Below, piece by piece: positions 8,612-35,033 of a stretch of 64,000 nt of DNA. The stretch is from Bacteroidales bacterium (GTDB lineage: Bacteria > Bacteroidota > Bacteroidia > Bacteroidales > UBA4417). The notes under the pieces were generated by a model that saw nothing but the letters and a program-made list of their open reading frames with translations, had not been told where the DNA came from and did no database searches. The stretch spans positions 1,496 to 65,495 of the forward strand of contig DAONEP010000006.1 in NCBI GenBank assembly GCA_035403165.1, written 5' to 3'. Position 1 is the stretch's first letter; each line of letters begins with the position of its first letter. A program made the position numbers and the translations under genes.

Positions 8612-8632
8612 CTGAACCATAATTTCTGTGAC

Positions 8633-11602: not shown

Positions 11603-11730
11603 TGATATCGGTTATTCCGGAACTGTCCGCCATACCGGTTTACTAAATCTTCCGGTTTATCTCCTGAGATAAAGATGAACCGTAACCATAATTACCTTTC
11701 CTGATGACCCTGCAAACGAATCCGATTATC

Positions 11731-18785: not shown

Positions 18786-19044
18786 CTAATCGTAGTGGAA
18801 TCTGCATTTTGCTATCAAAATAGTATCCTCTTTAACCTGATAAATTAATCGATGTTCATCACTGATTCTGCGTGAACAGAATCCCTTGTATTTAAATTTT
18901 AAAGTTTCCGGTTCCCCCGGTCCGGTAAAGGGATTACGCGAAATATCCTTTAGCAGGTCATTCAATCGCCGGAGCATCTTTTTTATCATTCTCCTGCCAA
19001 TAAAGATAATCTTCCCAGTACTCTTCCACGAAAATATATTTCAT
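18786..19044 (-). pseudogene. yoeB: YoeB/Txe-family toxin, frameshifted in a homopolymer
   Basis: One frame gives MKYIFVEEYWEDYLYWQENDKK from the ATG at 19044. A second frame gives KKMLRRLNDLLKDISRNPFTGPGEPETLKFKYKGFCSRRISDEHRLIYQVKEDTILIAKCRFHYD. The two join at an A6 run (T6 on the plus strand, 18979-18984). Deleting one A restores an 85-aa YoeB-length protein. Confidence 0.75.
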
Positions 19045-19322
19045 GATTCAATAAGGTCTTTTTCAAAAGAGCCGGATGATCTTAATTTTTCAATCGCCGA
19101 ATCAAGCCTTTGTTCATTAATTTTCGAAGAGAGTTCATGGTAAGTGGCCGTAAGAGAATTGTATTCTTCCAGCGACATAATAACGATTCCCCTGTCTCTG
19201 CCCCGGTTAATGATCAGCGTTTCAAAGTTTTCTGTAACCTTATCGAGATATTTTTTGATATCTCGGCGAAAATCGGAAATGGAGGCCGTAAGCATGGTTG
19301 ATTTATTTATGTACTTATTCAT
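19041..19322 (-). CDS. yefM: Phd/YefM-family antitoxin
   Basis: SISDFRRDIKKYLDKVTENFETLIINRGRDRGIVIMSLEEYNSL matches the family. Its stop overlaps the toxin ATG (ATGA). The real start is possibly Met10 at 19295. Confidence 0.8.
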   Translation of the reverse strand: MNKYINKSTMLTASISDFRRDIKKYLDKVTENFETLIINRGRDRGIVIMSLEEYNSLTATYHELSSKINEQRLDSAIEKLRSSGSFEKDLIES

Positions 19323-19556: not shown

Positions 19557-20270
19557 TTATTTCTCGAATAACATAAGTTGATCTTGTTTGAGTTGAGGAA
19601 ATGAAGAAAGAAAAGCATACAACCTCTCTATATTGGTCTTGCCTATAACACGTTTATCGTTAATTCTATAATTGCATAGTTGGAATAAACTATTTACCTT
19701 TTGAGATTCTAAAAGATCTTGAATTTTCACCCAATATCTTGCTTGGATTCCAGAACCATTTACAAGGTCTTCAGATTTCATGCTAAGCAATTTCTTCAGT
19801 TTTTCAAATAGTGGGTCTGATGAAGAAGTATCAAATTCATATATTTCGATTTCAATATCCGGCAAATTTTGGAGATATTTTCGAGTAATACTTTTTATAG
19901 TATCAAGAGGTAACCCGCCATTCATAGCACCCATCCAAGGAAAAGCGACTGAGTTGATTCCGAGATTTTTATAATTTTCACAAAATTTCTTGAGGGTTTC
20001 TTCTATCCATTCTTTTTTAGAAGGATTTTTCCAATCATCTTTAATTGCGAAATTCAAAATCCACGGATAACTTTTTTTGTAGAGGAGAATCTGGCCAGGT
20101 TTTAAAAGATGCTGAGTACAGATTTTTTGGTATTCTTTGAACATTTCCGGGAAACGAAGTCTAAACTCCAGAGCAATCCCTTTACCCATTACACCTACAC
20201 AATTCACAGTATTTACAAGAGCCATTGCTTGGGAGTTAAAGATATTTCCTAGAATTTCTATGTAGGCCAT
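19557..20270 (-). CDS. Macrodomain protein, DarG-like ADP-ribosyl glycohydrolase, with a C-terminal tail of about 85 aa
   Basis: ALVNTVNCVGVMGKGIALEFRLRFPEMFKEY and WMGAMNGGL closely resemble the DarG/TARG1-type macrodomain signature. The start lies 1 nt after the stop of the upstream giant gene. Confidence 0.8.
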   Translation of the reverse strand: MAYIEILGNIFNSQAMALVNTVNCVGVMGKGIALEFRLRFPEMFKEYQKICTQHLLKPGQILLYKKSYPWILNFAIKDDWKNPSKKEWIEETLKKFCENYKNLGINSVAFPWMGAMNGGLPLDTIKSITRKYLQNLPDIEIEIYEFDTSSSDPLFEKLKKLLSMKSEDLVNGSGIQARYWVKIQDLLESQKVNSLFQLCNYRINDKRVIGKTNIERLYAFLSSFPQLKQDQLMLFEK

Positions 20271-20271
20271 A

Positions 20272-23200
20272 CTATTTATTTTTAATACATGCTATTAGAT
20301 CCCTGTAGGGGTCGTTCCATTTAATGTCGTTTGTCAAACCAGGCAATAAATCCATAAAGTTGATTATCCTATTACCAATCTCTGTTTTGAATAATTCAAG
20401 ACGAAGATACGATTTATCACACTTTGATCGAAAGCGGCCTCGGTCTAATGCATCAGCATCTTTCAGAACTTTCCAAATAATGCTATCTTTGACCATAGAT
20501 GGGCATTCAGAATCAGCGACAGAATGATATATTATGGCATTTAGCGCTTGATTTTGGGTGTCTTTTTCGAGAACAAACTCACTGATCTTTGAATCATATT
20601 TCTTAGCGGATTTTAAGCCATGTGAAGGACCTTCCATATCAGATGATTTACCTAGATCATGAATAATTGCTGAATAATAGATAGCATCCTTAATTTGAGA
20701 CGAGATCATATCTGAGTACTTTAGTATCAGACAGGTTCCAAATAAAACTCTTGTAGTGTGAGCGATGCCATGATTTGAGTCAACCATTTTGGGTTCGAAT
20801 AAACTCCTGGATATCTTGAGTTTTAAACGAACCTCAAGCTGTAAAAATTCCTCAATTAGGTCTTCAGAAATTAGTGATTCTGAGTAATCAGTTGAGATGA
20901 TACTGGAATTTTTATTAGTGCTATAATTGGAATATACAATCCATTCACGTTTCCCAAGGGCCAGATCAACGAAACGAACCTCAATTGGTTTCTCTGTGAT
21001 TGTGAATCGTAATTCAGGATAGGCCATTATTTCGTCATCGGTTTCCTTGATAATTTTTTCGATATTGAGTATTTGAGTGTTCTTTAAACCTGAGCCTTTG
21101 ATTGAAAGATATGCATTATCGAGGTATTCAGATCGGATTGAAACTTCATTATTATCAAAATTAACAATAAGTTCTCTATTCATCCTGTGAAAAATATCCC
21201 ACCCATCTGCATTAATTTTCTTACAAATAGGGTCGTTGCCTAATTGAGATTTTAGCAAGTTAGCATATTCTTCGTTATAACAAATGATTTCAAATGAATC
21301 TAATGTTGAAAAATCAAATTCCTCAAGAACAAGAAATTCCTGTTGAGAATATTGTTTGTAATTTTCATAATCTGAAACTTCAGAATATAGATGCAATGTA
21401 TTGAGCGATTTAGGATTTTCGCTAACTTTTTCTACTCTTGCCCAATTTGTTTGCATATTTCCAGTACTATAAAAGCACTTGTTGGAAATTTTCATTATAA
21501 CTTCTTTCAAATTAAATTTGAAGAATACCGGGATAGGACACCTGGGTAATCCGAGATTACGAAATTGGGGATAATACGATTTCCAAATTTTTGACCATAT
21601 TTTATTGCCCTTCCAATCATACCCATCGAAAGCCCATCCTTCCTTGCCTGACTTGGAATCCATACCTAAGCATTCATTATAAAACTGCGTCGGGGTCTGA
21701 GTACGAAAATAAAATCGAGCGTAGTCGTGTGCAGTGCTTCGTCTTGCTACAAGATTACCTGCGGCATTGGAAAATTTACCATCAGCTTTGTTTCGACTAA
21801 GAATTTTCCGGCTTTTGATAATATCAATTGCATTGAATAGATGCGTAAAATGATAAATGTATGGTTCTCTGTCAAATTGCTCTAAAAATTCAACACAATT
21901 GAATTCTTCTTTGTATTTGCTTTTAGCATTGCCAATTTTTTCAATTATTTGAGGGTTTTTTCGTAGCAATTGCCAATCCCAGTTTTTGCGATACTTTTCA
22001 ATAAGTTCTTCCGTAAATTGAATTTCCAGCGATTCTGAAACATTTGACCAATTCAGAACATCTGAAAATGGTTCAAGAAGTTCGTTTGTTATTCTAAAAT
22101 CCTTTCTAGAATTAATCTCAATCCAATTCAATTTGTCTTTAAATAGTTTCAGATTTTCAGTATACATTTTAAACTTATCTGATTGAGAAATAAAATCCCA
22201 ATCGACATAATTTTGATACTTACTTAAAAATGAAATATCGGAAATATCAACAACTTCATTTTGGGTTATAAATTTCCAATCTAGACTTTCCTTATAATCC
22301 CAAAGAATTTCGGTTGAAAGATTTATATTTTTAGAAATTGCCTTCCAATCAATGTTTTGAGATTTAAGTAAAGAAAGCGTTTTAGAATTAGGTACAAAAG
22401 ATTTGTTCTGGGAAATTAGATACCAATTAATTGGCTTGCCTATCAATTTAATTACAAGTTCTTCAGAAAAAGCAATATCTGCTCTAGTTGATATAGCCTC
22501 CCAATCCCAATTCTGGTTTAAAAGTTCTATAAAGATTTCATTTTCAAACTTAATGTCATTTCTACCTGAAAGAGTTTCCCATTCCCAAGGCTTTTCTTTA
22601 TTTTCTTTTATAAATGCTAGAGAAAGTTTAACCGAAAGATTTTCTGATAGAGATGTCCAATCCCAATCATTACTAATTGTTTCAGCGAGTAGTTTCTCTG
22701 TGATATCTGAATCAGTTCTTTTAGAGAAAGAAGTAAAGTTGATAAACTTAGCGAACTTGCGGAATCGTCTTAAAAAATCTCTTTCTTTTTTGAAGCAACT
22801 GCTAAATTCTGATAGATACTCCCAATCCCATTTTTCCGACTCAATACTTAGAATTGAATCGTTCCAATTAATGTTATCTAACCTCGATAACGACTTGAAA
22901 TCCCACTTATAGGATTTGTTTTTCAATAATCTAAAAATGTCTTTTAGCCATACCTCATAGCTAAACAGAGACTTATCATATTGAAAAGATTTATTTAGTG
23001 CAATAGAACCTGATAATGTTTTCCAATCAACAAACTCGATGTTTTCGTTCAAATATTGCCTTGGATTAAAACTTGTCAAATCGTAGAAATAGCTATAATC
23101 CCATTGAAATACATCTTGATTAAATGTTTGGGAAACCAAATTTTCTAACTCTTCATAATCAAATTTGCTGGTAATTGTCTTCCAAAGTTGCTGCTTTAGC

Positions 23201-25563
23201 TCTTCGTTAAAAACATAGATACATTTTGCAACCTCTGTCAAATATTTAGAAGGTTGTAAATCTCCTTTTTCAAAGCGCTTTTTTAAAAGCATATCCCAAT
23301 TCCAGTAATCATTATACTCAGGTAGGTGATTTATGACAAATTCCTTATTTAAATTAATTGATAGGTAATCCCAATCCCAATATTCAAGATATAAATCTAA
23401 TTTATCTTCAATAATAGATAAATCAATATTCGTAGTAAGGTAGTTCCAATCCCACTTGTTAACCCATTTAGGATTACCAAGAGAATCAATTTTTATTGTA
23501 GAACAAAAGCGCTTTGTAAGAATAGACCAATCCCAATTATAATCAATATGGTTAAGAATAAACTCCTTGGAGGATTTTTCAGTAACATCTTTCCAGCATC
23601 CTGAGTTAATCTCCAAATAAGATAAAACATTTGCCTTAAAAAAAACTGCCTCTAATGTTTGGCCCGATATTCTTTTAAGCAGGATGTCAAAATTAAGTTT
23701 GTCTTTTACTGATATTAAGAACTCTGAATCATTTATCAGATTCTCATTTTCGGAAATTATATCCCAATTCCAGTTAAAATCAGGAAACTTATTAATAATC
23801 CCAGTCTCTGAGATGCGAGCAGAAATAAAATTAGAACCCTTTTGGGTTTTAATTTTTGAATTGTACTTTGTAAAAAAGTCCGGATTCCATTCAATAAATG
23901 GATTACATTCGAAACCTAGAACAAAGCTACCGCTTTCCCAGGTTAAGTACCCTGAGCTTTCTAACAAGGAAATAAGTTGATCTGTCCAAAAATAATTAGC
24001 CAGATTGGGCTGATAATCAGATAATGTAAATTCTTGTGCCGATAGAAGCACTTGAACAAAGTGAGCGGAATCACAAAACAATTTTGTATGATTTTCGGAA
24101 GCAAAAGCCCGATTGATTAAAATTTTGAGATTAAGAAATCCACTAAATTGTTGTATATTTTCTAAAATAAAGAACAAATCATAATCAGTCGAAATGAACA
24201 ACCAATTCCATTTTTTATCAGGGTATATCTCAATTAGCCTTTTTACCTCATTGTTATTGATTTCTGTCAATTCGGATAATTCAAAGTTTATTGTATTTAT
24301 ATTAGATTTGATAAACTCGAAATCCAACAACGGCATTATTCTATCCCAATCCCATTCATACTCTTTTAGTTCTGGAATCAGTAATAATGTTTTTAGGATT
24401 TCAATGCTAATATCTTCTTTGGCTGATATAATTTCAAAATTCCAAGGAAATAGAGTAGCATTTTGGATTAAAAAAACATCGTCAATCCTTAAGGATATGG
24501 AAGTCCAATCAAGATTGTCTCTATATGTTTTAAAGTACAGCTTTAATACATCAATCGGACAATGGTTTGAAATATTGAACCATTGATTTGCGTTTGCATT
24601 CTCACCCATGAAGGTAAACAATTGATTATCTTCCCAACACAAACGGGTGTCTTCTACAAGTGAATCCAAATCCAATAAATCTTCAAATGGTCTTATGGAC
24701 TTATAATCTAAAACAGCCGATGGGTCTTTTAAAAGTTTCAAGTACAAGCCCCATTCTATTTTTTTCTCTTTTGAGTCTGTATTATCTTGGCTATTCAATA
24801 AATCGGTTGCCTCATTGCAGATTTTACTGTTGTAGAATATTATTGGAAAGTATTCAGTGCCCTGTTTGTAAAGACGAATTTCTACCTGAATACTTGATAA
24901 TTTAAAGTGATTTGTTGGTTCCGATTTAAAAATTTGATAATTTTCTTTGGACTGTAAATTATGGCGTTTAATTAACTCTGATTCAACAATTTTAAATGCA
25001 TCATTGATGTCAACTTGATCATATTTAATTTGTGTTTTTCCTGTAATTTCGGAAAACTCGCCCAGTGAAGAATAAAATGGAAAAAAAATATTCTCCTTTA
25101 ATCCTGCAGGTTTGATATTGGTATTTTCTAATAACTCCTTATCCCCAGTATAGAATTTATATTTTTCTCCTAACGAAAGTGCCCTGTACCCTAAATCAGT
25201 CAATTTGAAAATAACAGGAAGTCCTTTCTCTGAAATTTGCTCAACTATACCCCAACCTAAAACAGGTTTAATAATAGCTTTAAAAATATCAAATTCAGCT
25301 TTATCGGCATATTGTTTGGGAGTTGCTTCAAAGTCGTCAAACACATTGAATCCCAATATTGTAGCAATTTTATTTTCTTCAATGAAACCATTGTTTGATT
25401 CAAGCATACTACAAATAATTCTGTCAATATCTTCAAGTGGGAAAGTTTCATAAAACGAAACCTTACAAGTGGTTTCTTTTAAACTCCAGGTGCGAAATCC
25501 TTTATCTTCAGCAACTGAAGCGTAAACAAGTTCAGAATTATTAACTATTTCTTGCCAATTCAT
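20272..25563 (-). CDS. 1763-aa multidomain protein. It has an unknown N-terminus, about 20 W-D-W repeats, a DarT-like (DUF4433) ADP-ribosyltransferase domain (about aa 1233-1440) and a C-terminal HD domain (about aa 1595-1715).
   Basis: DarT-like motifs are PYIYHFTHLFNAIDIIKSRKILSRN, LVARRSTAHDYARFYFRTQTPTQFYNE and YSQQEFLVLEEFDF. HD motifs are NHGIAHTTRV, IIHDLGK, IIYHSVAD and KDADALDRGRF. It is a single uninterrupted ORF in about 30% GC DNA. Confidence 0.85.
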   Translation of the reverse strand: MNWQEIVNNSELVYASVAEDKGFRTWSLKETTCKVSFYETFPLEDIDRIICSMLESNNGFIEENKIATILGFNVFDDFEATPKQYADKAEFDIFKAIIKPVLGWGIVEQISEKGLPVIFKLTDLGYRALSLGEKYKFYTGDKELLENTNIKPAGLKENIFFPFYSSLGEFSEITGKTQIKYDQVDINDAFKIVESELIKRHNLQSKENYQIFKSEPTNHFKLSSIQVEIRLYKQGTEYFPIIFYNSKICNEATDLLNSQDNTDSKEKKIEWGLYLKLLKDPSAVLDYKSIRPFEDLLDLDSLVEDTRLCWEDNQLFTFMGENANANQWFNISNHCPIDVLKLYFKTYRDNLDWTSISLRIDDVFLIQNATLFPWNFEIISAKEDISIEILKTLLLIPELKEYEWDWDRIMPLLDFEFIKSNINTINFELSELTEINNNEVKRLIEIYPDKKWNWLFISTDYDLFFILENIQQFSGFLNLKILINRAFASENHTKLFCDSAHFVQVLLSAQEFTLSDYQPNLANYFWTDQLISLLESSGYLTWESGSFVLGFECNPFIEWNPDFFTKYNSKIKTQKGSNFISARISETGIINKFPDFNWNWDIISENENLINDSEFLISVKDKLNFDILLKRISGQTLEAVFFKANVLSYLEINSGCWKDVTEKSSKEFILNHIDYNWDWSILTKRFCSTIKIDSLGNPKWVNKWDWNYLTTNIDLSIIEDKLDLYLEYWDWDYLSINLNKEFVINHLPEYNDYWNWDMLLKKRFEKGDLQPSKYLTEVAKCIYVFNEELKQQLWKTITSKFDYEELENLVSQTFNQDVFQWDYSYFYDLTSFNPRQYLNENIEFVDWKTLSGSIALNKSFQYDKSLFSYEVWLKDIFRLLKNKSYKWDFKSLSRLDNINWNDSILSIESEKWDWEYLSEFSSCFKKERDFLRRFRKFAKFINFTSFSKRTDSDITEKLLAETISNDWDWTSLSENLSVKLSLAFIKENKEKPWEWETLSGRNDIKFENEIFIELLNQNWDWEAISTRADIAFSEELVIKLIGKPINWYLISQNKSFVPNSKTLSLLKSQNIDWKAISKNINLSTEILWDYKESLDWKFITQNEVVDISDISFLSKYQNYVDWDFISQSDKFKMYTENLKLFKDKLNWIEINSRKDFRITNELLEPFSDVLNWSNVSESLEIQFTEELIEKYRKNWDWQLLRKNPQIIEKIGNAKSKYKEEFNCVEFLEQFDREPYIYHFTHLFNAIDIIKSRKILSRNKADGKFSNAAGNLVARRSTAHDYARFYFRTQTPTQFYNECLGMDSKSGKEGWAFDGYDWKGNKIWSKIWKSYYPQFRNLGLPRCPIPVFFKFNLKEVIMKISNKCFYSTGNMQTNWARVEKVSENPKSLNTLHLYSEVSDYENYKQYSQQEFLVLEEFDFSTLDSFEIICYNEEYANLLKSQLGNDPICKKINADGWDIFHRMNRELIVNFDNNEVSIRSEYLDNAYLSIKGSGLKNTQILNIEKIIKETDDEIMAYPELRFTITEKPIEVRFVDLALGKREWIVYSNYSTNKNSSIISTDYSESLISEDLIEEFLQLEVRLKLKISRSLFEPKMVDSNHGIAHTTRVLFGTCLILKYSDMISSQIKDAIYYSAIIHDLGKSSDMEGPSHGLKSAKKYDSKISEFVLEKDTQNQALNAIIYHSVADSECPSMVKDSIIWKVLKDADALDRGRFRSKCDKSYLRLELFKTEIGNRIINFMDLLPGLTNDIKWNDPYRDLIACIKNK
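21949..24516 (-). repeat. Protein-level repeat array with a period of about 25-26 aa and core W-[DNE]-W-x2-[LI]-[ST]-x-[NR]
   Basis: Examples are NWDWSILTKR, KWDWNYLTTN, YWDWDYLSIN, KWDWEYLSEF, DWDWTSLSEN, PWEWETLSGR, NWDWEAISTR, IDWKAISKN, VDWDFISQS and NWDWQLLRKN. The W positions 967, 993, 1019, 1047, 1073, 1096, 1122, 1147, 1172 and 1195 give spacings of 23-28 aa. Confidence 0.7.
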
Positions 25564-28500
25564 TTTGCTTTATACTTTATAATTCGACCATTGGGATTAC
25601 TTGCAATCGTTCTATATACATTGTCATATATTTCTTTTTGCCTAAACAGTTCACTATTACCAACAATAATAAGTAATCGTTTCGCACGAGATAACGCAAC
25701 ATTTAAACGATTAGGCGATTGAGCAAAACCTAAGTCATTTTGTGCAGGAAATCCCAATTCACCATAGAGGTAATAATCTGCTCTTTGTTTCTTATCTGAA
25801 GCAATACAATTACTTCTGACCATGGAAACAATGATTATGTTACGCTCCATACCCTGGAACCGGTCAACTGTACTAACTCTAATCGGGATTTCGTTAAATT
25901 CTCGCCTAATATTGCGCAACAGCTTTATTTGTTTATTGTAAAAACTAATAAGACCAATTTGTTGGTCTTCTGGATTTTCCCAAAACGCCTGATATTTTTT
26001 AAAGCTATCTGAATTGCGAATCATAGTTAGGACATGACGAATAGCATCAACTTCTCCCATATTTATTCTTGAGGTCCCATCTAACATTTCAGGTGAATTG
26101 GTGTCCAACCAAATTACATGGTTGCTTGGTGAGATTAGTCCTTCAACTTCAATTCCATGATAACGAGAAGCAGGATTATTCATGTTCTGGTCATTAACAC
26201 CTAAGTCGATAGGTGATATTAAGCCACATTCCAGACCACCATCCTGAATATAGAACTGCTTAATAACATCATTTATGTCAGGATGCATACGATATTGCAG
26301 GTTAAAAACTCCTTTCAAACTTCTATCTATATCTTTAAAAAGACGTTCGAAATGTGAAATTTCCATTTCTTTAAAATGTTTGGTAATATATAACTTTAGA
26401 TATAGTAATTTTTTTCTCTCTTCAACATTATCTATTCTATCAAGTAGATAATCAAAAGATAATATAAATTCTTCTTTATCAAGTAGTGGTGGTAATTGCC
26501 GGTGGTCTCCTATTACAATGTTTTTTTTACCGTAAATTAATGGTAGAGATAATTCGGCAGGGGTCGCTTTACTTGATTCATCCTGAATTACAGTAGTAAA
26601 GTAGATCTTATTCCGTGAGCTATTTGTCGGAAATCTATGTTCATTAGTCGAAAAATGATTTGGGCCAAAAATCTCACAATAGTTTTTGTAGAAACTTGTG
26701 GGTTTACCTCTTGTGTTTTTTTCACCGATTGAACTGCATGTTGCACCAACTACATTACAATATTTTAAATAGTTTGAATAAAAAATCTTTCGTAATTCCT
26801 TAGATGGATGAGTTAATAGTCTTAGCCAAAGTTCAAATATACCTTTATCAAGTTCTGACTGACTGATTCTTGATCGAATGTTATCAATCCAATTTTGCAG
26901 GATTAATTTTTGTGGTAACAGTTCATCTTCTTCAGACTTTTCATCAGAATCATATTGAATCGATCCATTTTCAACCCATTTTTTCATTAAATCAAGTGAA
27001 AATTGACGACCTTCTATTTCCAGTTTATCTTCGTCACCAAATCGAATAGGTTTCACTAAATTGTGATTTTTATTAACAATGCGATCAATAGCATTATCAA
27101 CTGCCAGATTGGTCTCGGAAGTAAGTAATATCCTTTCATTGGCATTTTTACGGATATGTTGCCACATTATTTCTGCAATAGCAGTTGATTTCCCAGTACC
27201 AGGTGGACCTTGAATTATGACTAGATCTTCAGCCAATAACGTTTTAATAATAGCATGCTTTTGCGAATCATTCACTTGCTTATTCAACAAGTGATTTTCT
27301 ATCTCTACATATGTTTCGCTTTGAGAATTTGTATGGTAATCAATATCATCTATTTTTTTTGCTTTTCCCGAGTCGAAGATAAAATCTTTCAAATTTGGGT
27401 TTTGCAAATTTTCTCCGCTTTTTATTCTATCGAGAGAATTTCTAAGTCTGTGAATTTTTTCTAAGTCACCAGTCACATCAGGATTAATCGAGGATACGAT
27501 ACTTTTTTCAAATAAAAGTGAAGTTTGCTCGCATTTATCGCCAGATATATCAAAAATCAATTCGGGATAATTAACTTTTATCAGCTTTCCAAAATAGTTT
27601 TTGCCAACATTAAAATCATGGCCTCGAAGTTCTTTCAAGACAGCAGAGAGTGATTCTTTCTGAGAATGAGGATCGAGTATAAATAAGTACTTTTCTTTGG
27701 ACTCTGGAATCTTAAAAAGACCAAGATTAAAAGAATCTGCGTTCAATGAATTTATTTCTGATTCAATAATCTGTCTGAGCCTAATGCATTGTTCTGAGGA
27801 TTGATATGGTTGATAAAAATAAAATTCACCTTTTTTGTCATTTCTAAGGCATTGGATTGATGGGAATTTCTCGCGCAAAATAGCTTCTACCTGATCTAAA
27901 GACAAATTTTGTATTTGTAAATCAACGTTACACTTGTGATTCTTATAAAGATTAAAATTTAAAAAAGGGTATTTAAGTGAAAGATTCTCAATGAGATTGT
28001 CTATTGATTCATTTTGCCAATTAAAATCCATTCCAATACTATTTGTGCTTTCACTGATACTTACTGTCTCGTTATCACTCGAAGCATATATTTGCGCCCA
28101 AACATCAGATTCGGAGTAATAATGTTTCGGCAGATAATCAGTGTCAAACTTATAAAGATCATATGTATATATGAATTTCGCTCTGAATTTTATGTTTTCA
28201 GAACCAAAATAAGAGTCAAAGAATCGCTTTAATCGTGTATATTTTAGATCGAAATCCCATTTTTCTTCGTAATAAGAACGAAATAGGTCATCTTTTTCTA
28301 TGTTATTATCTTTGAGACTTGTATGAAAAGTAAATGACCACTCATCGCGATTTAGTTCTGGTAGAATAATGGATGATGTCTTGGGATCATATTTTGAGAG
28401 TACACGAGGATCAACAAAAAAAGTAAAGTCGTATCCAAAAACCGTTAGTCCGATCTCATCTTTTAACTTGTTCAGTACAGCATTGTTCAAATATCCACCA

Positions 28501-29198
28501 ATTATTTCAATAGATCTTTGCACGATTGATATGTACTCTTCGTTATTTCCTAAATTGATTGCTTCTTTGTTCTTTTTTCTGTGACAAAGGGTTCTGTGAT
28601 TAAAGTTTAAATCGGGAAATTCTTTGGAAAGGAAGAATATTGGATTGGGACGAACTTGTAAAACAACGCTTGCGGTATCGGGAATTTGAATATTTATATT
28701 AGACAGTGAAAGGGAATTTGCTAACCTAACTATATCTGGAATTGAAACCTGCAACCTTTCCCTTCTATCAAATGAATAATCAATATTAGAAAGTTCCATT
28801 ATTTTTTTAAGCTTGTCAATTGTAGACTCTTTCTCAATTACGTAACCATCTATGACAGGATAAGGAGTAAAATTGATAAAATTTGCCGCAGCCCTCTCAG
28901 ATAATCTTTTTTTGACCACATAATCAATATTTCGAGCAATCCTACTTTCTGCAAAAAAGTAACCATTTTCAGTATTTATATCATCAATTGAAATTCTAAA
29001 TTCTTTTGAAATTTCAGCAAGGATCTCATCAATTTTTGCATTTTCGTCTGCAATCAGGTAAAGTTTATCACCAACAATTTTAGAGGAATTCGAAATAATT
29101 GATACAGGAATTGAGCGTGAAAGAAGAATTTGTTCCTGAACTTCGGTAAACTTCTGCCAGATTTCCTGAAGCTCAATTCTTGGATTTACGTTTTTCAT
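25560..29198 (-). CDS. SF1B (Upf1/DNA2-like, AAA_11/AAA_12 type) helicase with an uncharacterised N-terminal region of about 630 aa
   Basis: Walker A is IIQGPPGTGKST. Other motifs are VIQDESSKATPAE, VIGDHRQLPP, VDRFQGMERNIIIVS and RLNVALSRAKRLLIIVGN. Its stop overlaps the next gene's start by 4 nt. Confidence 0.85.
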   Translation of the reverse strand: MKNVNPRIELQEIWQKFTEVQEQILLSRSIPVSIISNSSKIVGDKLYLIADENAKIDEILAEISKEFRISIDDINTENGYFFAESRIARNIDYVVKKRLSERAAANFINFTPYPVIDGYVIEKESTIDKLKKIMELSNIDYSFDRRERLQVSIPDIVRLANSLSLSNINIQIPDTASVVLQVRPNPIFFLSKEFPDLNFNHRTLCHRKKNKEAINLGNNEEYISIVQRSIEIIGGYLNNAVLNKLKDEIGLTVFGYDFTFFVDPRVLSKYDPKTSSIILPELNRDEWSFTFHTSLKDNNIEKDDLFRSYYEEKWDFDLKYTRLKRFFDSYFGSENIKFRAKFIYTYDLYKFDTDYLPKHYYSESDVWAQIYASSDNETVSISESTNSIGMDFNWQNESIDNLIENLSLKYPFLNFNLYKNHKCNVDLQIQNLSLDQVEAILREKFPSIQCLRNDKKGEFYFYQPYQSSEQCIRLRQIIESEINSLNADSFNLGLFKIPESKEKYLFILDPHSQKESLSAVLKELRGHDFNVGKNYFGKLIKVNYPELIFDISGDKCEQTSLLFEKSIVSSINPDVTGDLEKIHRLRNSLDRIKSGENLQNPNLKDFIFDSGKAKKIDDIDYHTNSQSETYVEIENHLLNKQVNDSQKHAIIKTLLAEDLVIIQGPPGTGKSTAIAEIMWQHIRKNANERILLTSETNLAVDNAIDRIVNKNHNLVKPIRFGDEDKLEIEGRQFSLDLMKKWVENGSIQYDSDEKSEEDELLPQKLILQNWIDNIRSRISQSELDKGIFELWLRLLTHPSKELRKIFYSNYLKYCNVVGATCSSIGEKNTRGKPTSFYKNYCEIFGPNHFSTNEHRFPTNSSRNKIYFTTVIQDESSKATPAELSLPLIYGKKNIVIGDHRQLPPLLDKEEFILSFDYLLDRIDNVEERKKLLYLKLYITKHFKEMEISHFERLFKDIDRSLKGVFNLQYRMHPDINDVIKQFYIQDGGLECGLISPIDLGVNDQNMNNPASRYHGIEVEGLISPSNHVIWLDTNSPEMLDGTSRINMGEVDAIRHVLTMIRNSDSFKKYQAFWENPEDQQIGLISFYNKQIKLLRNIRREFNEIPIRVSTVDRFQGMERNIIIVSMVRSNCIASDKKQRADYYLYGELGFPAQNDLGFAQSPNRLNVALSRAKRLLIIVGNSELFRQKEIYDNVYRTIASNPNGRIIKYKAK

Positions 29199-29293: not shown

Positions 29294-31354
29294 CTACAAA
29301 AACCACAAATTATCTTTTCCAAATTCAGGGACATCGAGGCCGTCGAAGTGGGGGGCTATCTGGGCGATGATTTCGGGGTATTTGATGGTGACAGGTAGGT
29401 TCTGCTGGCGTACTGATTTCCAGTACATGCGGCTGAACTGGTACACCTGGTCTATCAGGTCGCGGATGATGGTTGTATCGTCCAGCTTGCTTTTATCGGT
29501 ACAATCAATTTTCAATTTGATTGGGAACGGCCATCCGTCGGCTTCGCGAAACGGCTGATTGCTGTAACGGGTATTGTTAAACAGCAGGTATTTGCGGTTT
29601 CCAATGTTGATATAGGTTCCGCTGTAAGGCATTTTATCGCTCCATGATTCATCGAAAGCCACAATATCCTCAGATTCCGTTTTGTTGATGGATATAATAA
29701 AGACAGGAATGTGAAGGTCCAAGGCTTCGAGGGCTTTCTGGATGGGTTGCAGCTCATCGTCGGACATGGTCTTGTAGAAATGGATAATCAACCTGTCAGG
29801 TGAGGAATTGACCGTTGCATATTCACGAATCTGGTGAGAGATAGATCCGGCAAGCAATTCGAGTTCATGTTTCATGAAATACTCGAAGCGGTTGAAAGTG
29901 CCATTGTTGTTGAAGCTAAAAGCACTGCCAATATACTGAACATCGGTTTCGATGTGTTTGAATGCTCCAACACCGACAATGAGTTCGTTTTTTAGCTGGG
30001 CTTTCAAACGCCAGGGCGTTCCTTTTAACTTAGCCAGGATTGCAATGGAAATATTTGTAAGGCTGTAAACATAATCAGCACCCTGTTCAATGACCTTTTT
30101 TGAATCGATGACCTGTGAGGGTATATCCCTTTTAAGCAGCAGCTCTTTGACCTTATAGTAGATTTCACGTTTTTGTAAATCCTGATCAAACTTGGTGTAA
30201 GGGGTCAAATAGATGGCAAAGTACTTCACATCCTGATTGAAGCTGCGTTTTGCCAATACTTCATTTATTTCCTGTACCGGATTTTCTTTGTCCTTAAACA
30301 GGATGCTGAAATGCGGTTCGGTGTGAAAAAGTATTTTTACATACTTATTCAAGCCTTTAAACCAGTCTAAACCGGTTTCGAGGTATGTTTTCACTGCTTT
30401 GGCAATCTCGGCATCGGAATTATGAAGGATAAAGAACAGATGTATCTTTTTGTAAGGGGTTTTGTCGTATGGACCGTTTAATTTGATGCCATTGTGAGGA
30501 ACAATATCGGTTGCGCTATTTCCGAATACCATCTGATTGCTATCGAAGTTGGTAGTGCTGATGAGTGCAGGATTCACTTTCAGAAAGCCTGTATGATGCA
30601 AAGGAATGATTTCACGGAACTCCTTTATGTTTAAGAAAGTCTTGTGAAAATCGTTAATCTTGTTCCGGTAATGCTTGTACTTGTTTTCTTTTGAAGGTAT
30701 TGGCGCAGGGAAACCAAGCGCCCTTGCAAGTTCGTTATTCAATACCGGATAAACGTTTTCGTAATCATCAGACAAGTCATCCGGCAGATCATCGAATTTA
30801 TGCAATTGGTTTTTTACCATTACCCAATTTAACAACGAAGGCGAATTATCAGCCATCAGTTCAGCTACACTCTTCTTCAAAACCTTGGATGTACCTTCGT
30901 ATGATATAAAGATTTCTGGGTATTGGCTCACTGTAGCGATCTGGACCTTGAGTGCATATTTTTCATATACTTCAAACTGGTCGGTATCTGCCGCAGGTAC
31001 TGGCAACCAAATGGTATTCTCCTTAATAAATCCAACCTGGACAATCTGATTAACGATTACCCGGAAGTAGTAGTTTATTTTCCGATCGAAATAGCGCTTT
31101 ATGAATGCGGGTGTTTCTTTTCTTGCATCCAAGGTGCAAGGAATAAAGCCTGCTGTTTCGCCAGTGAATGTGGTATAAACAAAATCGGAGCCGTTGGCAC
31201 TTATTCCGGGAAATATAGTTTCAACTGCAGCCGGGAAGATTGATTTGTGGATACGCTGGCAACGGCCGTTGTCCGCTTTGCTGAAATAGAAAGTTAGCTT
31301 TTCTTCAGGCCAGTCGAAGGTAAGTATGTTGAAATGGAGATCGGGAGGAGGCAT
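29294..31354 (-). CDS. Prokaryotic Argonaute (MID-PIWI), predicted catalytically inactive (long-B-like / DdmE-like)
   Basis: MID-like motifs are YYKVKELLLKRDIPSQVI and NISIAILAKLKGTPWRL. The PIWI motifs have lost their acidic residues (IVGVGAFKH instead of GxDV, LIIHFYK instead of hRDG). Also seen are LPVTIKYPEIIAQ and the C-terminal NLWFL. Confidence 0.8.
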   Translation of the reverse strand: MPPPDLHFNILTFDWPEEKLTFYFSKADNGRCQRIHKSIFPAAVETIFPGISANGSDFVYTTFTGETAGFIPCTLDARKETPAFIKRYFDRKINYYFRVIVNQIVQVGFIKENTIWLPVPAADTDQFEVYEKYALKVQIATVSQYPEIFISYEGTSKVLKKSVAELMADNSPSLLNWVMVKNQLHKFDDLPDDLSDDYENVYPVLNNELARALGFPAPIPSKENKYKHYRNKINDFHKTFLNIKEFREIIPLHHTGFLKVNPALISTTNFDSNQMVFGNSATDIVPHNGIKLNGPYDKTPYKKIHLFFILHNSDAEIAKAVKTYLETGLDWFKGLNKYVKILFHTEPHFSILFKDKENPVQEINEVLAKRSFNQDVKYFAIYLTPYTKFDQDLQKREIYYKVKELLLKRDIPSQVIDSKKVIEQGADYVYSLTNISIAILAKLKGTPWRLKAQLKNELIVGVGAFKHIETDVQYIGSAFSFNNNGTFNRFEYFMKHELELLAGSISHQIREYATVNSSPDRLIIHFYKTMSDDELQPIQKALEALDLHIPVFIISINKTESEDIVAFDESWSDKMPYSGTYINIGNRKYLLFNNTRYSNQPFREADGWPFPIKLKIDCTDKSKLDDTTIIRDLIDQVYQFSRMYWKSVRQQNLPVTIKYPEIIAQIAPHFDGLDVPEFGKDNLWFL

Positions 31355-31373: not shown

Positions 31374-34300
31374 TCAAAATATGGCTGAGAGGTACTGTGT
31401 ATTGTCTTCAATGAATACAATGTGGTTGTAAGTAAATTCGTCGCGGGTTGCACCGTTTGCGCCCCAAACCGAGCAAATGTCTTTGAATGGCGTGACGGAG
31501 AGTATCCAGGCGTCAATTGAAACAGTGAGATCAATCTTATTTTGCTTCAAATCCTGATTGATTTTCTTTTCGAGGTCTTTAACCTGATCGCGGCAGAAGA
31601 TAACTTTTGGATTATTGAAGTTGCGTGTTTCGCGGATTCCTTTGGGATCAATGAAATAGATATGCTGATGCCCGGGTTCAATAATCCATATCATGAAATC
31701 GGGATAGAAGGAAGAACTCTCGATAAAGAAACCCATTCCTTTTTGCGAAAGGTTGCGCAGCACAAATACTTCCTTATTTTTAAAGCGTTCCTGTTCACTG
31801 TCGATAAATCTGCGGAGGTGCAGCATGAAATCTCTTTCTCCCTGATTTAAGCGTACCGGAACAGTCTTAATCTCGTTGAATTTTTCGCCTTTTGCCCATG
31901 AAGCGATCGGAGAGTATAGATGATGGCTAAAATGGAGAGTCGGAATCGTGCCATCGTCGCGAAGATAGAGTTGACTGATATTTGCCGATAGTTCCTTTAT
32001 GACTTCTTCGTATTGTTTGGGCACTCTCACAATCATTTGCTGCGATGCCGGGAACATTTCGCCCTGAGAAACAGGATCAAGAAGGTCGTAAGTAAGGTGC
32101 CTGGTAAGAAATGCTTTTTCCTGATCGGCATAGAATTTATTGATATAGTCCTTGATGATGAACCCGGCAATGTTTTGCAGTTTTCCGTTCAAGACTTCCT
32201 GCATACCGAATTGTTCGGGGTGGCTTAAAATATTATAAGCATTCCCACGGATAATTTCTTCAATAACCGGAAGACTGATCATAAGGTTTGTGTAACCTTT
32301 CAGCAACTTATAGCGATTTGCTTCGAGAAACAGGCTGCTGTAGTTGATAAAATCCAGGTACGGTTTTGTGAAATTAACCTCATACCCTCCTGAATCATCA
32401 GCCACACCTCTGCTGAAACTGCTTACAGCTACTGAAATTTTATTCCGGAGGTCGATAGTAACACGATTGGCAATAGCGGGCTTATAGCTAAGCTGGATGA
32501 GTTCGTTGCGGAACGACAGGCCTTGCTCTGTTTTAAATGTAAGAATATGCCGATTCCATTCATCGGGTCTGTTATAGGCTATTTTTACCGGGAACTCCTC
32601 ATATACCGGCACTTCTTTACCGATTTCTTCCAGAAAACGGTTGATATAGGAAGCATTGAGGCCAACTATAGAGATTGTTTGCAGGGCTTTGAGGTGGTAG
32701 GGAGTTCCTGCTTCATCGCGTTTTAAGGATAGTTCTTTCCCTTTGAGGCGCACCCCCCGGCCGAACAACTGAATGATTTGGGCACCTTCGCTTTTACCCA
32801 TGTTCATTAATCCCATGCTTGAAACACGCCATGAGTTCCAGCCTTCAATAAATTTTTTAGACCCAATCAGGATATTAATGGAAGAATCGGAATCGGCAAT
32901 GGACCCGAACAATGACCGGGAATAATTGTCATCCTGTACGGTCAGATCTTCGTCTTTCTCTTTTTCGAGATTTTTTACATAGGAGGGAACATCGCCAATG
33001 TTGATTACTGCAAAATACTGCTCTCCCGATTTTGTTTTAAGGGCAATTTCACCATCAGCCTGTTTTATCTCCCAGGCTTCAATATTACCGATGCCATGAA
33101 AAACCTTTTGAAGAACCTGATCGGCTGTAGGCTTGATTTCTTTCAGATATGTGAACCGGTTCTTGAAAATGTCGTCGCCGAGTTGGTTAATGAGGCCTGA
33201 ATTTTCAGAAATGATGTTATCAATTATCCGCTGGAAAACTGAGGGGTTTTTCAGGACAAAGGTGAAGAACCGAACTACTTTTGTTATGTCGGATTGGTTG
33301 CCTTCGCCCTGAACTTTACTGCCTACGAAAATCCATAGGGGTTTCTCGATGTTAAACGGCCTCAGTCCCTCTTTGTGCTTATCAAATAATTCCAGTTGCT
33401 CGTAGAATCCAAGCAGACTTGCCGACAAGAGCAAGCGGTTTTGATCTTCTGTGTATTCGTTCTTTACATCTAAGTTGAACACTGAAAAATCTTTGCCGTA
33501 ACCATCAGCATAGAAATGGCGATATGAATAGTCGAAAATGATAGCGCGTCCATATTCCTGTAAGAGGTCCTGGGTTCCGGCGCTAATTATCTGACCGAAG
33601 GTAGCAGAATACTCAAACGTGAATGAACCCTCGCCACGTGTAATGTGTTCGCGCAGACCTTTCCATGCCCGTTCTTCGGACTTCTGCCCTTTGTGGCCTT
33701 CGTCGATAAATACCAGGTTTTTATACTCAGCAAAGTGATCAACATCCACACTTACTCCTTCGCCGGACTTTTCCTTTACCAGCTTGGTTATTTCGAGAAT
33801 TAATATTTCATCATCCCCGGTTTTAAGGCTTTCTTCGCTGCCCGAATACAATTTGGCCGGAATGCCACTGGCGGTAAGATCGTCGTAATGTTGGCGACTG
33901 AGCCCTTCGTTGGGCGTGATCAGTATGATGTTCTCCCAATCGGGGAAATATTTAACAATCTGCCAATAATTGCAATGCATAATCAGCGTTTTGCCGCTTC
34001 CGGTTGCCATCCAGAAAGCTAACTTTCGAAGGTCGGCAGCAGTGTAATCCTCAATAATCTTAAAATCTTTTGATGCGTGTTTATACGCATTCAGGTTGCT
34101 TACAAATGTTTCGGGATCCTGACTGTACTGATCAAGGTAATACTCGGTGAAAAGCAACGAAAACCATTGGTAGTATTTAAATGAAAGGAATGGTTCAGCC
34201 CTGTTTTCACGCAGCTTTTTCTCATATCCCTGTATTGCTTCGTCGTAAGTGAAGATGGTTTGGTTTTCGATCAGCTTTTCGGAACGGTTCAACAAGATAC

Positions 34301-34436
34301 TTGCAAAGAAAGTATGCCCTGATGAGTTGGTTCCTGTTTCCCTGGTATTAAATTCTTCGCGAAGGGAATCAAAGGTATCGTACCCAAACTGGCGTAGGAT
34401 GTAGCGGAATAATATGAGTTGTTTGTTCAGTTGCAT
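31374..34436 (-). CDS. SF2 (ResIII-type) helicase fused to a C-terminal PD-(D/E)xK nuclease (DdmD-like or type III Res-like)
   Basis: Helicase motifs are WMATGSGKT (I), VFIDEGH (II), YSATF (III), IEGWNSWRV and QLFGRGVRL (VI). The C-terminus FYPDFMIWI...IYFIDPKG fits PD...DxK. The gene ends 19 nt before the pAgo start. Confidence 0.8.
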   Translation of the reverse strand: MQLNKQLILFRYILRQFGYDTFDSLREEFNTRETGTNSSGHTFFASILLNRSEKLIENQTIFTYDEAIQGYEKKLRENRAEPFLSFKYYQWFSLLFTEYYLDQYSQDPETFVSNLNAYKHASKDFKIIEDYTAADLRKLAFWMATGSGKTLIMHCNYWQIVKYFPDWENIILITPNEGLSRQHYDDLTASGIPAKLYSGSEESLKTGDDEILILEITKLVKEKSGEGVSVDVDHFAEYKNLVFIDEGHKGQKSEERAWKGLREHITRGEGSFTFEYSATFGQIISAGTQDLLQEYGRAIIFDYSYRHFYADGYGKDFSVFNLDVKNEYTEDQNRLLLSASLLGFYEQLELFDKHKEGLRPFNIEKPLWIFVGSKVQGEGNQSDITKVVRFFTFVLKNPSVFQRIIDNIISENSGLINQLGDDIFKNRFTYLKEIKPTADQVLQKVFHGIGNIEAWEIKQADGEIALKTKSGEQYFAVINIGDVPSYVKNLEKEKDEDLTVQDDNYSRSLFGSIADSDSSINILIGSKKFIEGWNSWRVSSMGLMNMGKSEGAQIIQLFGRGVRLKGKELSLKRDEAGTPYHLKALQTISIVGLNASYINRFLEEIGKEVPVYEEFPVKIAYNRPDEWNRHILTFKTEQGLSFRNELIQLSYKPAIANRVTIDLRNKISVAVSSFSRGVADDSGGYEVNFTKPYLDFINYSSLFLEANRYKLLKGYTNLMISLPVIEEIIRGNAYNILSHPEQFGMQEVLNGKLQNIAGFIIKDYINKFYADQEKAFLTRHLTYDLLDPVSQGEMFPASQQMIVRVPKQYEEVIKELSANISQLYLRDDGTIPTLHFSHHLYSPIASWAKGEKFNEIKTVPVRLNQGERDFMLHLRRFIDSEQERFKNKEVFVLRNLSQKGMGFFIESSSFYPDFMIWIIEPGHQHIYFIDPKGIRETRNFNNPKVIFCRDQVKDLEKKINQDLKQNKIDLTVSIDAWILSVTPFKDICSVWGANGATRDEFTYNHIVFIEDNTQYLSAIF

Positions 34437-34442
34437 TGGATC

Positions 34443-34527
34443 GTTTCAGAGTTTCAGAGTTACAGGGTTTCTTGGTTTCAGGCTTGCCTGCCTGGGCGGG
34501 GTTGCGGGTGAGAGGACAGGGTTTCAG
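34443..34527. promoter_or_regulatory. Cluster of GTTTCAG heptamers upstream of the helicase-nuclease/pAgo genes
   Basis: gtttcag occurs at 34443, 34451, 34475 and 34521, with a gtttct variant near 34467. Confidence 0.35.
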
Positions 34528-35033
34528 ACAAGGGCCCAGGCCTCATAGCGTTTTTGGCATTCTGATTTCGGAAGACCGAGGCGCGGATTTATAATTTCAG
34601 TGAGCGTTTTAAGAGCAGTTGTGGCTTCCATACCAGATAACACGCTACATTCCACAAGCCGGTCAAAAACCCAGAGATAGCCATAGGCTTCCAGGTGATT
34701 ATTGCGGGCATGTTTTTTTAGGGAGTTGTCGCCTGTTACCAATACTCCAGCCATTTTGCGGGCATGGAAGAAGGCAGAACAATCCTGAGGGGATAAAGTG
34801 GGCTTTTTCAGGTTGATTTCGTTTATTTCATTCAGATCGTTATCTGAAAAGTCAACTACAACCAGTTTTGTTGCCTGAATATAAGGCTCGAGTTCGGCTT
34901 GCTGGTAGTCGTAAAGTTCATCCATGATGGGGGCTGTTGTCTGGAACTCGAAGGGCAGACTAAAGAATTGTTGCAGCAGCCCAAGCTCAACAAGATCAAT
35001 CAGAATATTTGCATCATTGACGATTACCCTCAC
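34524..35033 (-). CDS. PIN-domain protein (DUF3368-like)
   Basis: The N-terminus reads VIVNDANILIDLVELGLL. Later LSPQDCSAFFHARKMAGVLVTGDNSLKKHA gives acidic residues in PIN-like positions. Its start overlaps the upstream stop by 4 nt. Confidence 0.6.
   Translation of the reverse strand: MRVIVNDANILIDLVELGLLQQFFSLPFEFQTTAPIMDELYDYQQAELEPYIQATKLVVVDFSDNDLNEINEINLKKPTLSPQDCSAFFHARKMAGVLVTGDNSLKKHARNNHLEAYGYLWVFDRLVECSVLSGMEATTALKTLTEIINPRLGLPKSECQKRYEAWALV

Follow-up and report, generated by a model that had tools for sequence, protein, structure and literature searches.

DarTG2 is reportedly a type II/IV toxin-antitoxin pair made of DarT2, an ADP-ribosyltransferase toxin acting sequence-specifically on thymidine in single-stranded DNA (ssDNA), and DarG, a macrodomain antitoxin that reverses the modification; the pair is said to have been described by Jankevicius in 2016 and LeRoux in 2022. 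Type I Mokosh is composed of the helicase MkoA and the phospholipase D (PLD) nuclease MkoB, or has a fusion form, MkoC. DarTG is among the few known systems that defend by ADP-ribose modification of DNA, and it is often embedded in type I restriction-modification (R-M) loci (PMC5179494). A further system, DarHTG (Liu-DS3), comes from Escherichia coli and comprises the helicase DarH, DarT, and DarG3 (Nucleic Acids Research [NAR] 2026; PMC13069673); there, anti-phage activity depends on the ATP site of the helicase and on the active site of DarT alike (PMC13069673). Here, we analyzed a stretch of 64,000 nucleotides from a Bacteroidales bacterium (GenBank assembly GCA_035403165.1, contig DAONEP010000006.1, positions 1,496 to 65,495), referred to below as the window. 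It carries a three-gene operon for a large helicase, a giant protein with an internal DarT domain, and a small macrodomain (macro) protein. On balance, we judge it somewhat probable that this trio is a conserved, horizontally mobile, Bacteroidota-wide defense-type module that is derived from DarTG and works by the mechanism proposed below.

Organization and distribution of the operon

The three genes lie on the minus strand in the order helicase (gene 1; 25560-29198; 1,212 aa), giant gene (gene 2; 20272-25563; 1,763 aa), and macro gene (gene 3; 19557-20270; 237 aa). An earlier note on this DNA, made from the sequence and a list of its open reading frames (ORFs), had described three minus-strand genes packed without spacing, with a 4-nt overlap at the first junction and a 1-nt spacer at the second, in a block of about 30% guanine-plus-cytosine (GC) content against a backbone of about 50%. 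Each of these statements held. All three ORFs lie exactly where the earlier note had placed them. Read directly, the helicase/giant junction is AAGCAAAATGAATTG, that is, ATGA, in which the helicase TGA stop overlaps the giant ATG by 4 nt, and the giant/macro junction is AATAAATAGTATGGCC, composed of the giant TAG stop, 1 nt, and the macro ATG. The computed GC content is 0.30 to 0.34 across 19 to 29 kb versus 0.48 to 0.53 in the adjoining GH127/GH2 glycosidase genes. Several metagenome assemblies of a Bacteroidales bacterium contain the identical operon in an unchanged chromosomal setting, and a megablast search of the operon and its flank against 5,426 E. coli genomes returned no match.

Relatives of the giant protein number more than 100 at the 90%-cluster level, and an exhaustive search gave 81 representatives at an E value of <1e-30. 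A species-level scan with one genome per species yielded 79 loci (numbered with the prefix L), which come from Flavobacteriia, Bacteroidia, Chitinophagia, Sphingobacteriia, Cytophagia, and Saprospiria and from a few otherwise-labeled bins of metagenome-assembled genomes. As judged from these genome labels, the family is almost wholly Bacteroidota, and its carriers include the gut genera Bacteroides, Parabacteroides, Phocaeicola, Hoylesella, and Alloprevotella. The non-Bacteroidota bins (L005, L014, L030, L047, L050, L059, and L077) are mostly short contigs labeled Desulfosporosinus, Oscillospiraceae, Clostridia, Puniceicoccaceae, Paratractidigestivibacter, and Gammaproteobacteria; they represent either mis-binned Bacteroidota contigs or real transfer beyond the phylum. 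The giant protein was not found in phage records, where the sole match was weak and confined to the repeats.

The three genes keep together across these loci. Where at least 2.5 kb of upstream sequence was available (n = 66), the helicase was present in the cluster in every case and lay directly upstream of the giant gene in 65. Its core ends within 400 bp of the giant gene in 51 loci; in 12 more, the ORF is extended by a C-terminal domain and ends at the giant start, 2 are adjacent with fragmented matches, and in the remaining 1 the helicase comes after the macro gene. The macro gene follows in 64/65 loci, and the identities of helicase and giant protein covary (Spearman rho, 0.71; P = 1e-10). 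These counts answer the check on co-occurrence of the trio that the earlier note had proposed. Overlapping or abutting ORFs, together with a coevolving helicase and giant protein, show that at the level of gene order and sequence the three genes form one unit.

Components of the trio

The giant protein is organized as a winged helix-turn-helix (wHTH)-containing N-terminal domain, an alpha-solenoid, DarT, a beta-rich domain, and an HD domain. The DarT-family ADP-ribosyltransferase domain (aa ~1226 to 1445; 21229-21888, minus strand) was assigned from Pfam, PADLOC, and a profile search of the PDB. The Pfam DarT model (PF14487/DUF4433) matches at 4.5e-13 in the whole protein and at 2.3e-17 in the excised segment, and the PADLOC DarT model matches at an E value of 5e-7, with aa 1232 to 1443 aligned to profile positions 8 to 183 of 196. 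The expected motifs are YIYHFTH (aa 1235 to 1241), HDYARFYFR (aa 1279 to 1287), and QQEFLV (aa 1407 to 1412, containing E1409), and H1238, H1241, R1257, A1282-R-F-Y1285, R1287, and Q1407-Q-E1409 are invariant in alignments of 14 to 33 sequences. A 21-sequence family profile matches Thermus DarT (7omv) at 0.0024 and places the QQE motif and E1409 on the position of E160, which is catalytic in the Thermus (Taq) enzyme and whose mutation abolishes toxicity (PMC5179494). In this search of the PDB, the DarT2-type Thermus enzyme was matched, and no other DarT entry was found at an E value of ≤1. The DarT core that the earlier note had read from the motifs YIYHFTH, HDYARFYF, and QQEFLV, with E1409 as its candidate catalytic residue, is thereby supported by the Pfam and PADLOC matches and by the alignment of E1409. 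The giant protein is named "DarT ... family protein" by NCBI.

DarT is preceded by the N-domain/solenoid scaffold. AlphaFold2 (AF2), run with family alignments, modeled aa 1 to 1200 of the giant protein (predicted local distance difference test [pLDDT] score, 89) as an alpha/beta N-terminal domain followed by an uninterrupted all-alpha solenoid of paired short helices. The N-terminal domain (aa 1 to ~280; 24724-25563, minus; pLDDT, ~88) includes a winged-helix module that Foldseek matches to F93, AspA, ArsR, and MarR over ~85 to 90 aa (probability, 1.0; template modeling [TM] score, 0.5 to 0.67). The LRV-like solenoid (aa ~281 to 1225; 21889-24723, minus; pLDDT, ~90) was recognized from repeat spacing and from the model; its unit is a 25- to 26-aa WxWxxLSxN repeat forming two short helices. 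A reading of the WxW repeats as beta-type leucine-rich repeats was ruled out by the all-alpha model. Foldseek returned only generic HEAT/ARM-type matches to the solenoid, Avs3 and DSR2 among them, and these were nonsignificant (E, 0.1 to 0.3). Neither the N-terminal domain nor the solenoid, nor the N terminus of the helicase, has a Pfam or PADLOC match. The beta-rich domain after DarT (aa ~1446 to 1560; 20884-21228, minus) is a conserved alignment block present in all family members, and family searches gave no match to it.

All of the 60-plus full-length relatives of the giant protein are 1,400 to 2,000 aa long. Since DarT is present in all full-length relatives of the N-domain/solenoid scaffold, scaffold and DarT constitute a fixed unit, and swapping of effectors on the scaffold was ruled out. 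The WxW repeat solenoid, and nothing else of the giant protein, is also found in P0279, P0317, and P0318, which have Pkinase heads, in P0284, which has an HNH head, and in P0290 (DUF5754 plus LRV_2), which has a near-threshold LRV_2 match. The joining of the solenoid to kinase and HNH heads suggests a reusable recognition module in other, uncharacterized conflict proteins.

The macro protein consists of a macro domain (aa ~6 to 150) and a tail of ~85 aa. It matches Pfam Macro at 2e-14, PADLOC DarG at 1.2e-52, and the Thermus aquaticus DarG macrodomain (5m31) at 2e-29. Its K77-D-D-W80 aligns with K80-K-H-W83 of the Taq protein, in which K80 is the catalytic lysine (PMC5179494). K77 and the ADP-ribose-pocket motifs GNIF, VNTxNCVGxMGKG, and AFPxxGxxNGG show conservation of at least 95% across 72 sequences. 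The NCBIfam antitoxin_DarG model scores 172 bits versus a cutoff of 250 and is matched only at profile positions 6 to 169 of 338; the PADLOC DarG match likewise spans positions 7 to 193 of 329. The nonmacro part of full-length DarG also inhibits DarT by protein contact (PMC5179494). On this evidence, the macro protein corresponds to the enzymatic half of DarG only, without the DarT-binding C-terminal half. The earlier claim of a DarG-type macrodomain holds, with the correction that the protein represents only this half of DarG. Because the DarT-binding half is absent, the macro protein would be a purely enzymatic antidote.

Two loci, both from Cytophagales, encode the helicase and a giant protein with intact DarT motifs and lack a detectable macro gene. 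One of them, L070, belongs to Nibrella saemangeumensis. The other, L164, lies at 4688-12986 of the Hymenobacter sp. NBH84 plasmid NZ_CP043645.1, is flanked by IS3, other transposases, and an integrase, and is the sole plasmid-borne homolog found.

The locus could alternatively be read as an ordinary DarTG toxin-antitoxin (TA), or abortive-infection, pair whose toxin has accreted domains and whose helicase is an unlinked neighboring defense gene. DarT and a DarG-type macro gene are indeed adjacent, with their catalytic residues conserved, and because the PADLOC DarT and DarG models both match, automated tools may label the locus DarTG. An unlinked helicase, however, is at odds with its presence in 66/66 loci, with translational coupling, with the rho of 0.71, and with a helicase family that is found nowhere else. 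An ordinary pair also sits poorly with a macro protein that lacks the toxin-binding half, with macro-less variants that keep DarT intact, and with the fact that no free-standing small DarT is encoded. We regard this explanation as improbable.

The helicase matches Pfam AAA_11 at 4e-31 and AAA_12 at 6e-39, with only marginal matches to UvrD models (2e-4 and 7e-3), and in the PDB it matches IGHMBP2 at 3e-21 and UPF1 and DNA2 at ~1e-18. By these matches, it is an Upf1/IGHMBP2/DNA2-like helicase of superfamily 1B (SF1B). All six superfamily 1 (SF1) motifs are intact in the core (aa 631 to 1212; 25563-27308, minus), namely, GPPGTGKS (664 to 671), QDESSKA (872 to 878), GDHRQLPP (897 to 904), QYRMHP (968 to 973), VDRFQGMERN (1111 to 1120), and LNVALSRAK (1165 to 1173), and the motif columns are near-invariant across 25 homologs. 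The N-terminal region (aa 1 to 630; 27309-29198, minus) is modeled as family-specific small alpha/beta modules (pLDDT, 82); the best Foldseek match in the PDB has an E value of 0.02 and a TM score of <0.1, in a whole-chain query that may hide single-domain matches. The earlier description of a 1,212-aa Upf1-like helicase with an unknown 630-aa N terminus agrees with the matched core and with an N terminus that has no Pfam, PADLOC, or significant Foldseek match. Full-length relatives of the helicase form a closed family with 48 to 65% identity, after which scores fall to 119 bits. Judged by this drop, the helicase family is exclusive to the DarT-giant operon.

Additional domains are attached to the helicase in some relatives. 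In 12 to 13 loci (L019 to L022, L027, L028, L039, L047, L058, L059, L061, L063, and L076), the helicase begins with an S1 domain and ends with a Ppx/GppA-family domain of ~385 aa. In L013 to L016 and L018, a separate 507-aa, multi-S1, rpsA-like gene ends 1 bp before the helicase. This gene may belong to the system or may be the housekeeping rpsA; in tblastx synteny comparisons of these loci (L013 to L018), L016 versus L018 was the one pair whose shared block has its start precisely at the S1 gene.

The domain at the C terminus of the giant protein (aa ~1561 to 1763; 20275-20883, minus) is an optional HD-superfamily domain. As a single sequence, this tail matches Pfam HD weakly (0.017). With a 10-sequence profile, the HD hydrolase 2pq7 is matched at 3.3e-6, and the H..HD..H..D metal ligands line up and are invariant; the residues in the window protein are H1598, H1602, H1635-D1636, H1648, H1680, and D1702/D1704/D1707. 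Cas3-HD models match weakly, at 0.014 for the HD tail of the window and at 2.9e-6 for an HD-macro fusion type. The C-terminal HD domain proposed in the earlier note was therefore confirmed at the profile level. Its proposed place as part of the effector was not, since about half of the family lacks HD, two unrelated HD types exist, and HD travels with the macro gene and not with DarT. No HD of any kind is found in ~35 loci, and the window type is fused to the giant protein in the window and in 10 of the 79 other loci. The second type (LLHDIGK...YYQCD), present in 30 loci, takes three forms: it begins a 450-aa HD-macro fusion, it is fused to the C terminus of the giant protein, or it is part of an HD-PIN_4 protein. 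The last is 385 to 390 aa long and is encoded after the macro gene, with HD as its N-terminal half; PIN_4 is joined in this way in ~8 loci.

Homology of the window HD tail with the "X" HD module of relatives was rejected. Because hhalign aligns only the HDxGK motif (probability, 35%), two HD subfamilies appear to occupy one post-DarT slot. The helicase, the N-terminal part of the giant protein, and DarT of the window are nearest to the L005/L006 type (54 to 75% identity), and its HD tail and macro protein are nearest to the L013/L027/L037 type (39 to 50% and 60 to 71%, respectively). The identities of macro and DarT are uncorrelated (rho, 0.01). Because the nearest types differ and this correlation is absent, HD and macro together appear to be an exchangeable 3' cassette.

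The accessory modules and the kinship of the helicase bear on whether the system is directed at RNA. In such a case, the helicase would act on phage transcripts or RNA intermediates, the DarT-like domain would ADP-ribosylate RNA or the system would sense RNA, PIN_4 and HD would be RNA-degrading co-effectors, and the macro protein would reverse RNA ADP-ribosylation. The closest characterized relatives of the helicase core are the RNA helicases UPF1, IGHMBP2, and SEN1 and the PADLOC model MkoA (3e-95). S1 domains have been added in ~17 loci in two independent ways, as a fusion to the helicase N terminus (12 loci) or as a separate gene (5 loci), and PIN_4 is joined to the HD module in ~8. DNA2, however, is an equally close relative of the helicase, IGHMBP2 and DNA2 act on DNA, and S1/OB (oligonucleotide/oligosaccharide-binding) folds bind ssDNA too. 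The HD modules weakly resemble Cas3-HD, an ssDNA nuclease, and the operon of the window has neither an S1 nor a PIN module. Characterized DarT enzymes with a DarG macrodomain partner modify thymidine in ssDNA (PMC5179494, PMC11543638). We consider an RNA-directed system unlikely, if still worth keeping in view. A more specific form, in which the helicase and the giant DarT are an RNA-directed or RNA-guided-by-structure machine that feeds phage RNA or RNA-DNA intermediates to an RNA-ADP-ribosylating DarT, strikes us as rather doubtful. If true, it would provide the first DarT-family enzyme acting on RNA, and its combination of an Upf1-like helicase, a PIN nuclease, and nucleic acid ADP-ribosylation would be reminiscent of eukaryotic RNA surveillance.

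The surrounding island and the adjoining Argonaute

In the window, the trio lies in a low-GC island that extends from position ~18.7 kb to position 53 kb and is bounded by GH2 and pth/L25/prs, together with YoeB/Phd, a prokaryotic Argonaute (pAgo), a split type III R-M system, a Schlafen/AlbA protein, and further genes. Across the relatives, the slot upstream of the helicase is occupied by pAgo (5 loci plus the window), HsdR (5 loci), BrxL, GmrSD, a YobI-type ATPase, reverse transcriptase, UvrD-type helicases, or a nonspecific endonuclease, and the downstream genes include EcoRV, EcoRI methylase, Fic/DOC, RhuM, and Schlafen-type genes. In its gene content, this neighborhood is the signature of defense islands. 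The defense role suggested in the earlier note is supported by the neighboring R-M, bacteriophage exclusion (BREX), GmrSD, pAgo, reverse transcriptase, and Fic genes.

The full-length pAgo (29294-31354, minus; 686 aa; PADLOC PDLC02385, 9e-270) has a PIWI domain nearest to the AfPiwi/RsAgo type. A gap of 95 bp, in which no convincing terminator was seen, separates it from the helicase downstream on the same strand. Related pAgos stand at this position in 5 of ~66 other loci of the system (36 to 49% identity), and L080 has one farther upstream (54% identity). This arrangement could mean that the trio serves the pAgo as its effector arm, with guided sensing recruiting or activating the helicase and DarT in a four-gene system. 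Because of the 95-bp distance and the recurrence at that position, the linkage was tested from the pAgo side. Among 59 metagenomic loci of the pAgo clade with at least 1.5 kb of downstream sequence, just 1 carries helicase/DarT genes, and there they are nonadjacent. Conversely, more than 85% of the loci of the system have no pAgo and hold HsdR, BrxL, GmrSD, reverse transcriptase, or other genes in the slot, and GC content steps from 0.32 to 0.41 exactly at the pAgo junction. A scan for terminators and promoters in the pAgo-helicase gap and at the operon ends gave chance-level counts, the sigma-70 consensus being inapplicable to Bacteroidota. A four-gene system is extremely unlikely; given the reverse test and the GC step, pAgo was rejected as a fourth component, and on this genomic evidence it is a frequent island neighbor.

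A different class of explanation takes the trio out of defense altogether, as a selfish addiction module that stabilizes the island or as a host regulator of replication or repair that acts by reversible ADP-ribosylation, as has been proposed for mycobacterial DarTG. DarTG is reported to have growth-control roles in Mycobacterium (PMC12170906, PMC11543638), the operon adjoins a YoeB/Phd TA pair, and one homolog is plasmid-borne. Against these points stand the patchy distribution, the atypically low GC content, and a consistent position among defense genes across many genera; in addition, the size and the sensor-like solenoid are typical of immune proteins and not of housekeeping regulators. 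A role outside defense is very unlikely in our estimation.

Other genes of the island include the following. At the edge beside the macro gene lie the Phd/YefM antitoxin gene (19041-19322, minus; 1.8e-16) and the YoeB toxin ORF (18786-18989, minus; 7e-25 over profile positions 17 to 80 of 80; possibly N-terminally shortened). This pair, just downstream of the trio, and the pAgo are absent from the earlier note. Beyond the pAgo, the type III R-M genes Res (31374-34436, minus) and Mod (38152-41226, minus) enclose an RmrA-like helix-turn-helix plus M78 peptidase gene (35030-36076, minus), a 169-aa PIN/DUF3368-like ORF (34524-35033, minus) that overlaps it, and a gene for a Schlafen AlbA_2 plus HATPase_c_4 protein (36449-38110, minus). 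In L013, L020, and L027, the macro gene is immediately followed by a gene for a Schlafen/AlbA_2 protein of this type, and L001 has one close to the system. Two tandem DUF6266 genes follow (43770-45525, plus); a DUF6266 gene is also found a few kilobases from the system in Winogradskyella (L001, 19840-20481), and this recurrence may mark a shared mobile element. The low-GC region further contains a LytTR-type pair of an FG-GAP-repeat histidine kinase (46190-48301, plus) and a response regulator (48323-49099, plus) and, after the latter, a gene for a 1,038-aa Por-secreted protein with eight Flg_new_2 repeats, the whole set lying at 46190-52329 (plus). Neither the pair nor the Por-secreted protein has a PADLOC match. 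In the relatives, a 1,268-aa AAA_30/UvrD_C_2 helicase adjoins the system in L049 (15408-19214, after the macro gene) and L080 (2621-6427); in L080, and probably in L101, it lies between pAgo and the helicase of the trio. It may be another accessory gene or an independent defense gene.

Proposed mechanism and comparison with known systems

In the mechanism that we propose for the DarTG-derived defense module, the helicase and the giant protein would act as a complex. The winged-helix domain and the LRV-like solenoid would hold DarT inactive and serve as a recognition or scaffold surface. Upon infection, the SF1B helicase would translocate on or unwind invader nucleic acid and expose single strands, which the tethered DarT would ADP-ribosylate using NAD+, blocking replication and transcription. 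By analogy with DarT2/DarG pairs, its target would be thymidine in ssDNA. Where present, the weakly Cas3-HD-like HD module would add cleavage or processing of single-stranded nucleic acid, as a nuclease or phosphohydrolase, and the small macro enzyme would strip stray ADP-ribose from host nucleic acid.

Several lines of evidence are consistent with this proposal. The predicted catalytic residues of the ADP-ribosyltransferase, the helicase, the macro hydrolase, and HD are all conserved. The macro-less variants with intact DarT and the half-length DarG argue for autoinhibition over a strict TA relationship, and the DarHTG precedent supports a role for the helicase by analogy. A role of the WxW repeat in recognition or as a scaffold agrees with its reuse beside kinase and HNH heads in other proteins. 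Other points weigh against the proposal. We infer the anti-phage activity, the toxicity, the substrate, and the formation of a complex, and likewise the sensor gating put forward in the earlier note, and sensing by the solenoid is suggested by Avs/DSR2-type analogy and repeat reuse, where the Foldseek matches were nonsignificant. The match of DarT to a solved DarT is weak in sequence terms (0.0024 even with a profile), the helicase N terminus has no recognizable fold in the Foldseek search of the PDB, and S1, PIN_4, and the RNA-helicase relatives (Upf1 and MkoA) fit RNA at least as well as DNA.

In this family, the DarT/macro pair has been built out into a far larger machine with a dedicated helicase and swappable modules. 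Defense in Bacteroidota is poorly explored experimentally, and E. coli-centered screens miss such systems. If validated, the trio would give a dominant gut phylum a named defense family, a natural helicase-coupled, autoinhibited nucleic acid ADP-ribosyltransferase, and a test of whether an antidote works purely by catalysis. It would also supply an enzyme that marks DNA or RNA, can be targeted, and may be useful in biotechnology.

The likeness to DarTG2 extends to the same enzyme pair, with the catalytic glutamate and NAD-binding motifs of the ADP-ribosyltransferase and the catalytic lysine of the macrodomain, and to residence in defense islands and type I R-M loci. The DarTG2 toxin, however, is free-standing and ~200 to 230 aa long, whereas DarT here is internal (aa ~1226 to 1445 of 1,763). 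The macro protein has 237 aa without the second half, compared with ~340 aa for DarG. DarTG2 is a two-gene operon, in contrast to a three-gene core with an obligatory SF1B helicase, with optional HD, PIN_4, S1, and Ppx/GppA modules and with two macro-less variants. DarHTG is the closest precedent, as a DarT-based system that has recruited a helicase. Yet DarH is a UvrD-like SF1A enzyme without a 2B domain, whereas the present helicase is SF1B with a unique 630-aa N terminus; DarG3 is an ARH-type glycohydrolase and the antidote here a DarG-type macrodomain; and the small DarT of DarHTG contrasts with one fused to a wHTH domain and a ~950-aa solenoid. DarHTG was described from E. coli, and the present family is Bacteroidota-wide.

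Similarities to other systems are more limited. Like Mokosh, the trio combines a large Upf1-like helicase with an effector, and the helicase core matches the PADLOC MkoA model at 3e-95 and 3e-78. This match covers the core only, the N-terminal 630 aa having no PADLOC match; no PLD domain was found in the trio proteins or flanking ORFs, and the effector is an ADP-ribosyltransferase with a hydrolase antidote instead of a PLD nuclease. Avs and DSR2 proteins similarly fuse a large alpha-solenoid to an NAD+-consuming or nucleic acid-directed effector in one polypeptide. The giant protein differs from them in having no STAND NTPase, no SIR2, and a distinct 25- to 26-aa WxW/LRV-like repeat, and its operon additionally supplies a helicase and an antidote enzyme as separate proteins; the Foldseek similarity is nonsignificant (E, 0.1 to 0.3). 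As in Cas3, a helicase is combined with an HD domain, here one that weakly matches Cas3-HD models. In Cas3, however, the helicase is SF2, whereas here it is SF1B, HD is optional and resides on the DarT or macro polypeptide and not on the helicase, and there is no CRISPR or Cascade context.

No model with this composition exists in PADLOC, NCBIfam, or Pfam, and the architecture was undescribed in literature searches for DarT plus Argonaute, DUF4433 plus pAgo, DarT plus Mokosh/Bacteroidota, and DUF4433. The earlier view of the locus as an undescribed system is upheld by the lack of a PADLOC, NCBIfam, or literature match and is qualified by DarHTG, a validated precedent for a helicase joined to DarT and a hydrolase. 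The DarT and macro matches are real, the trio co-occurs, and no named system matches it. With a fused DarT, half a DarG, three genes, and different helicase and antidote families, the trio is placed by its predicted composition outside both DarTG and DarHTG, as a well-supported, widespread, unnamed candidate defense system.

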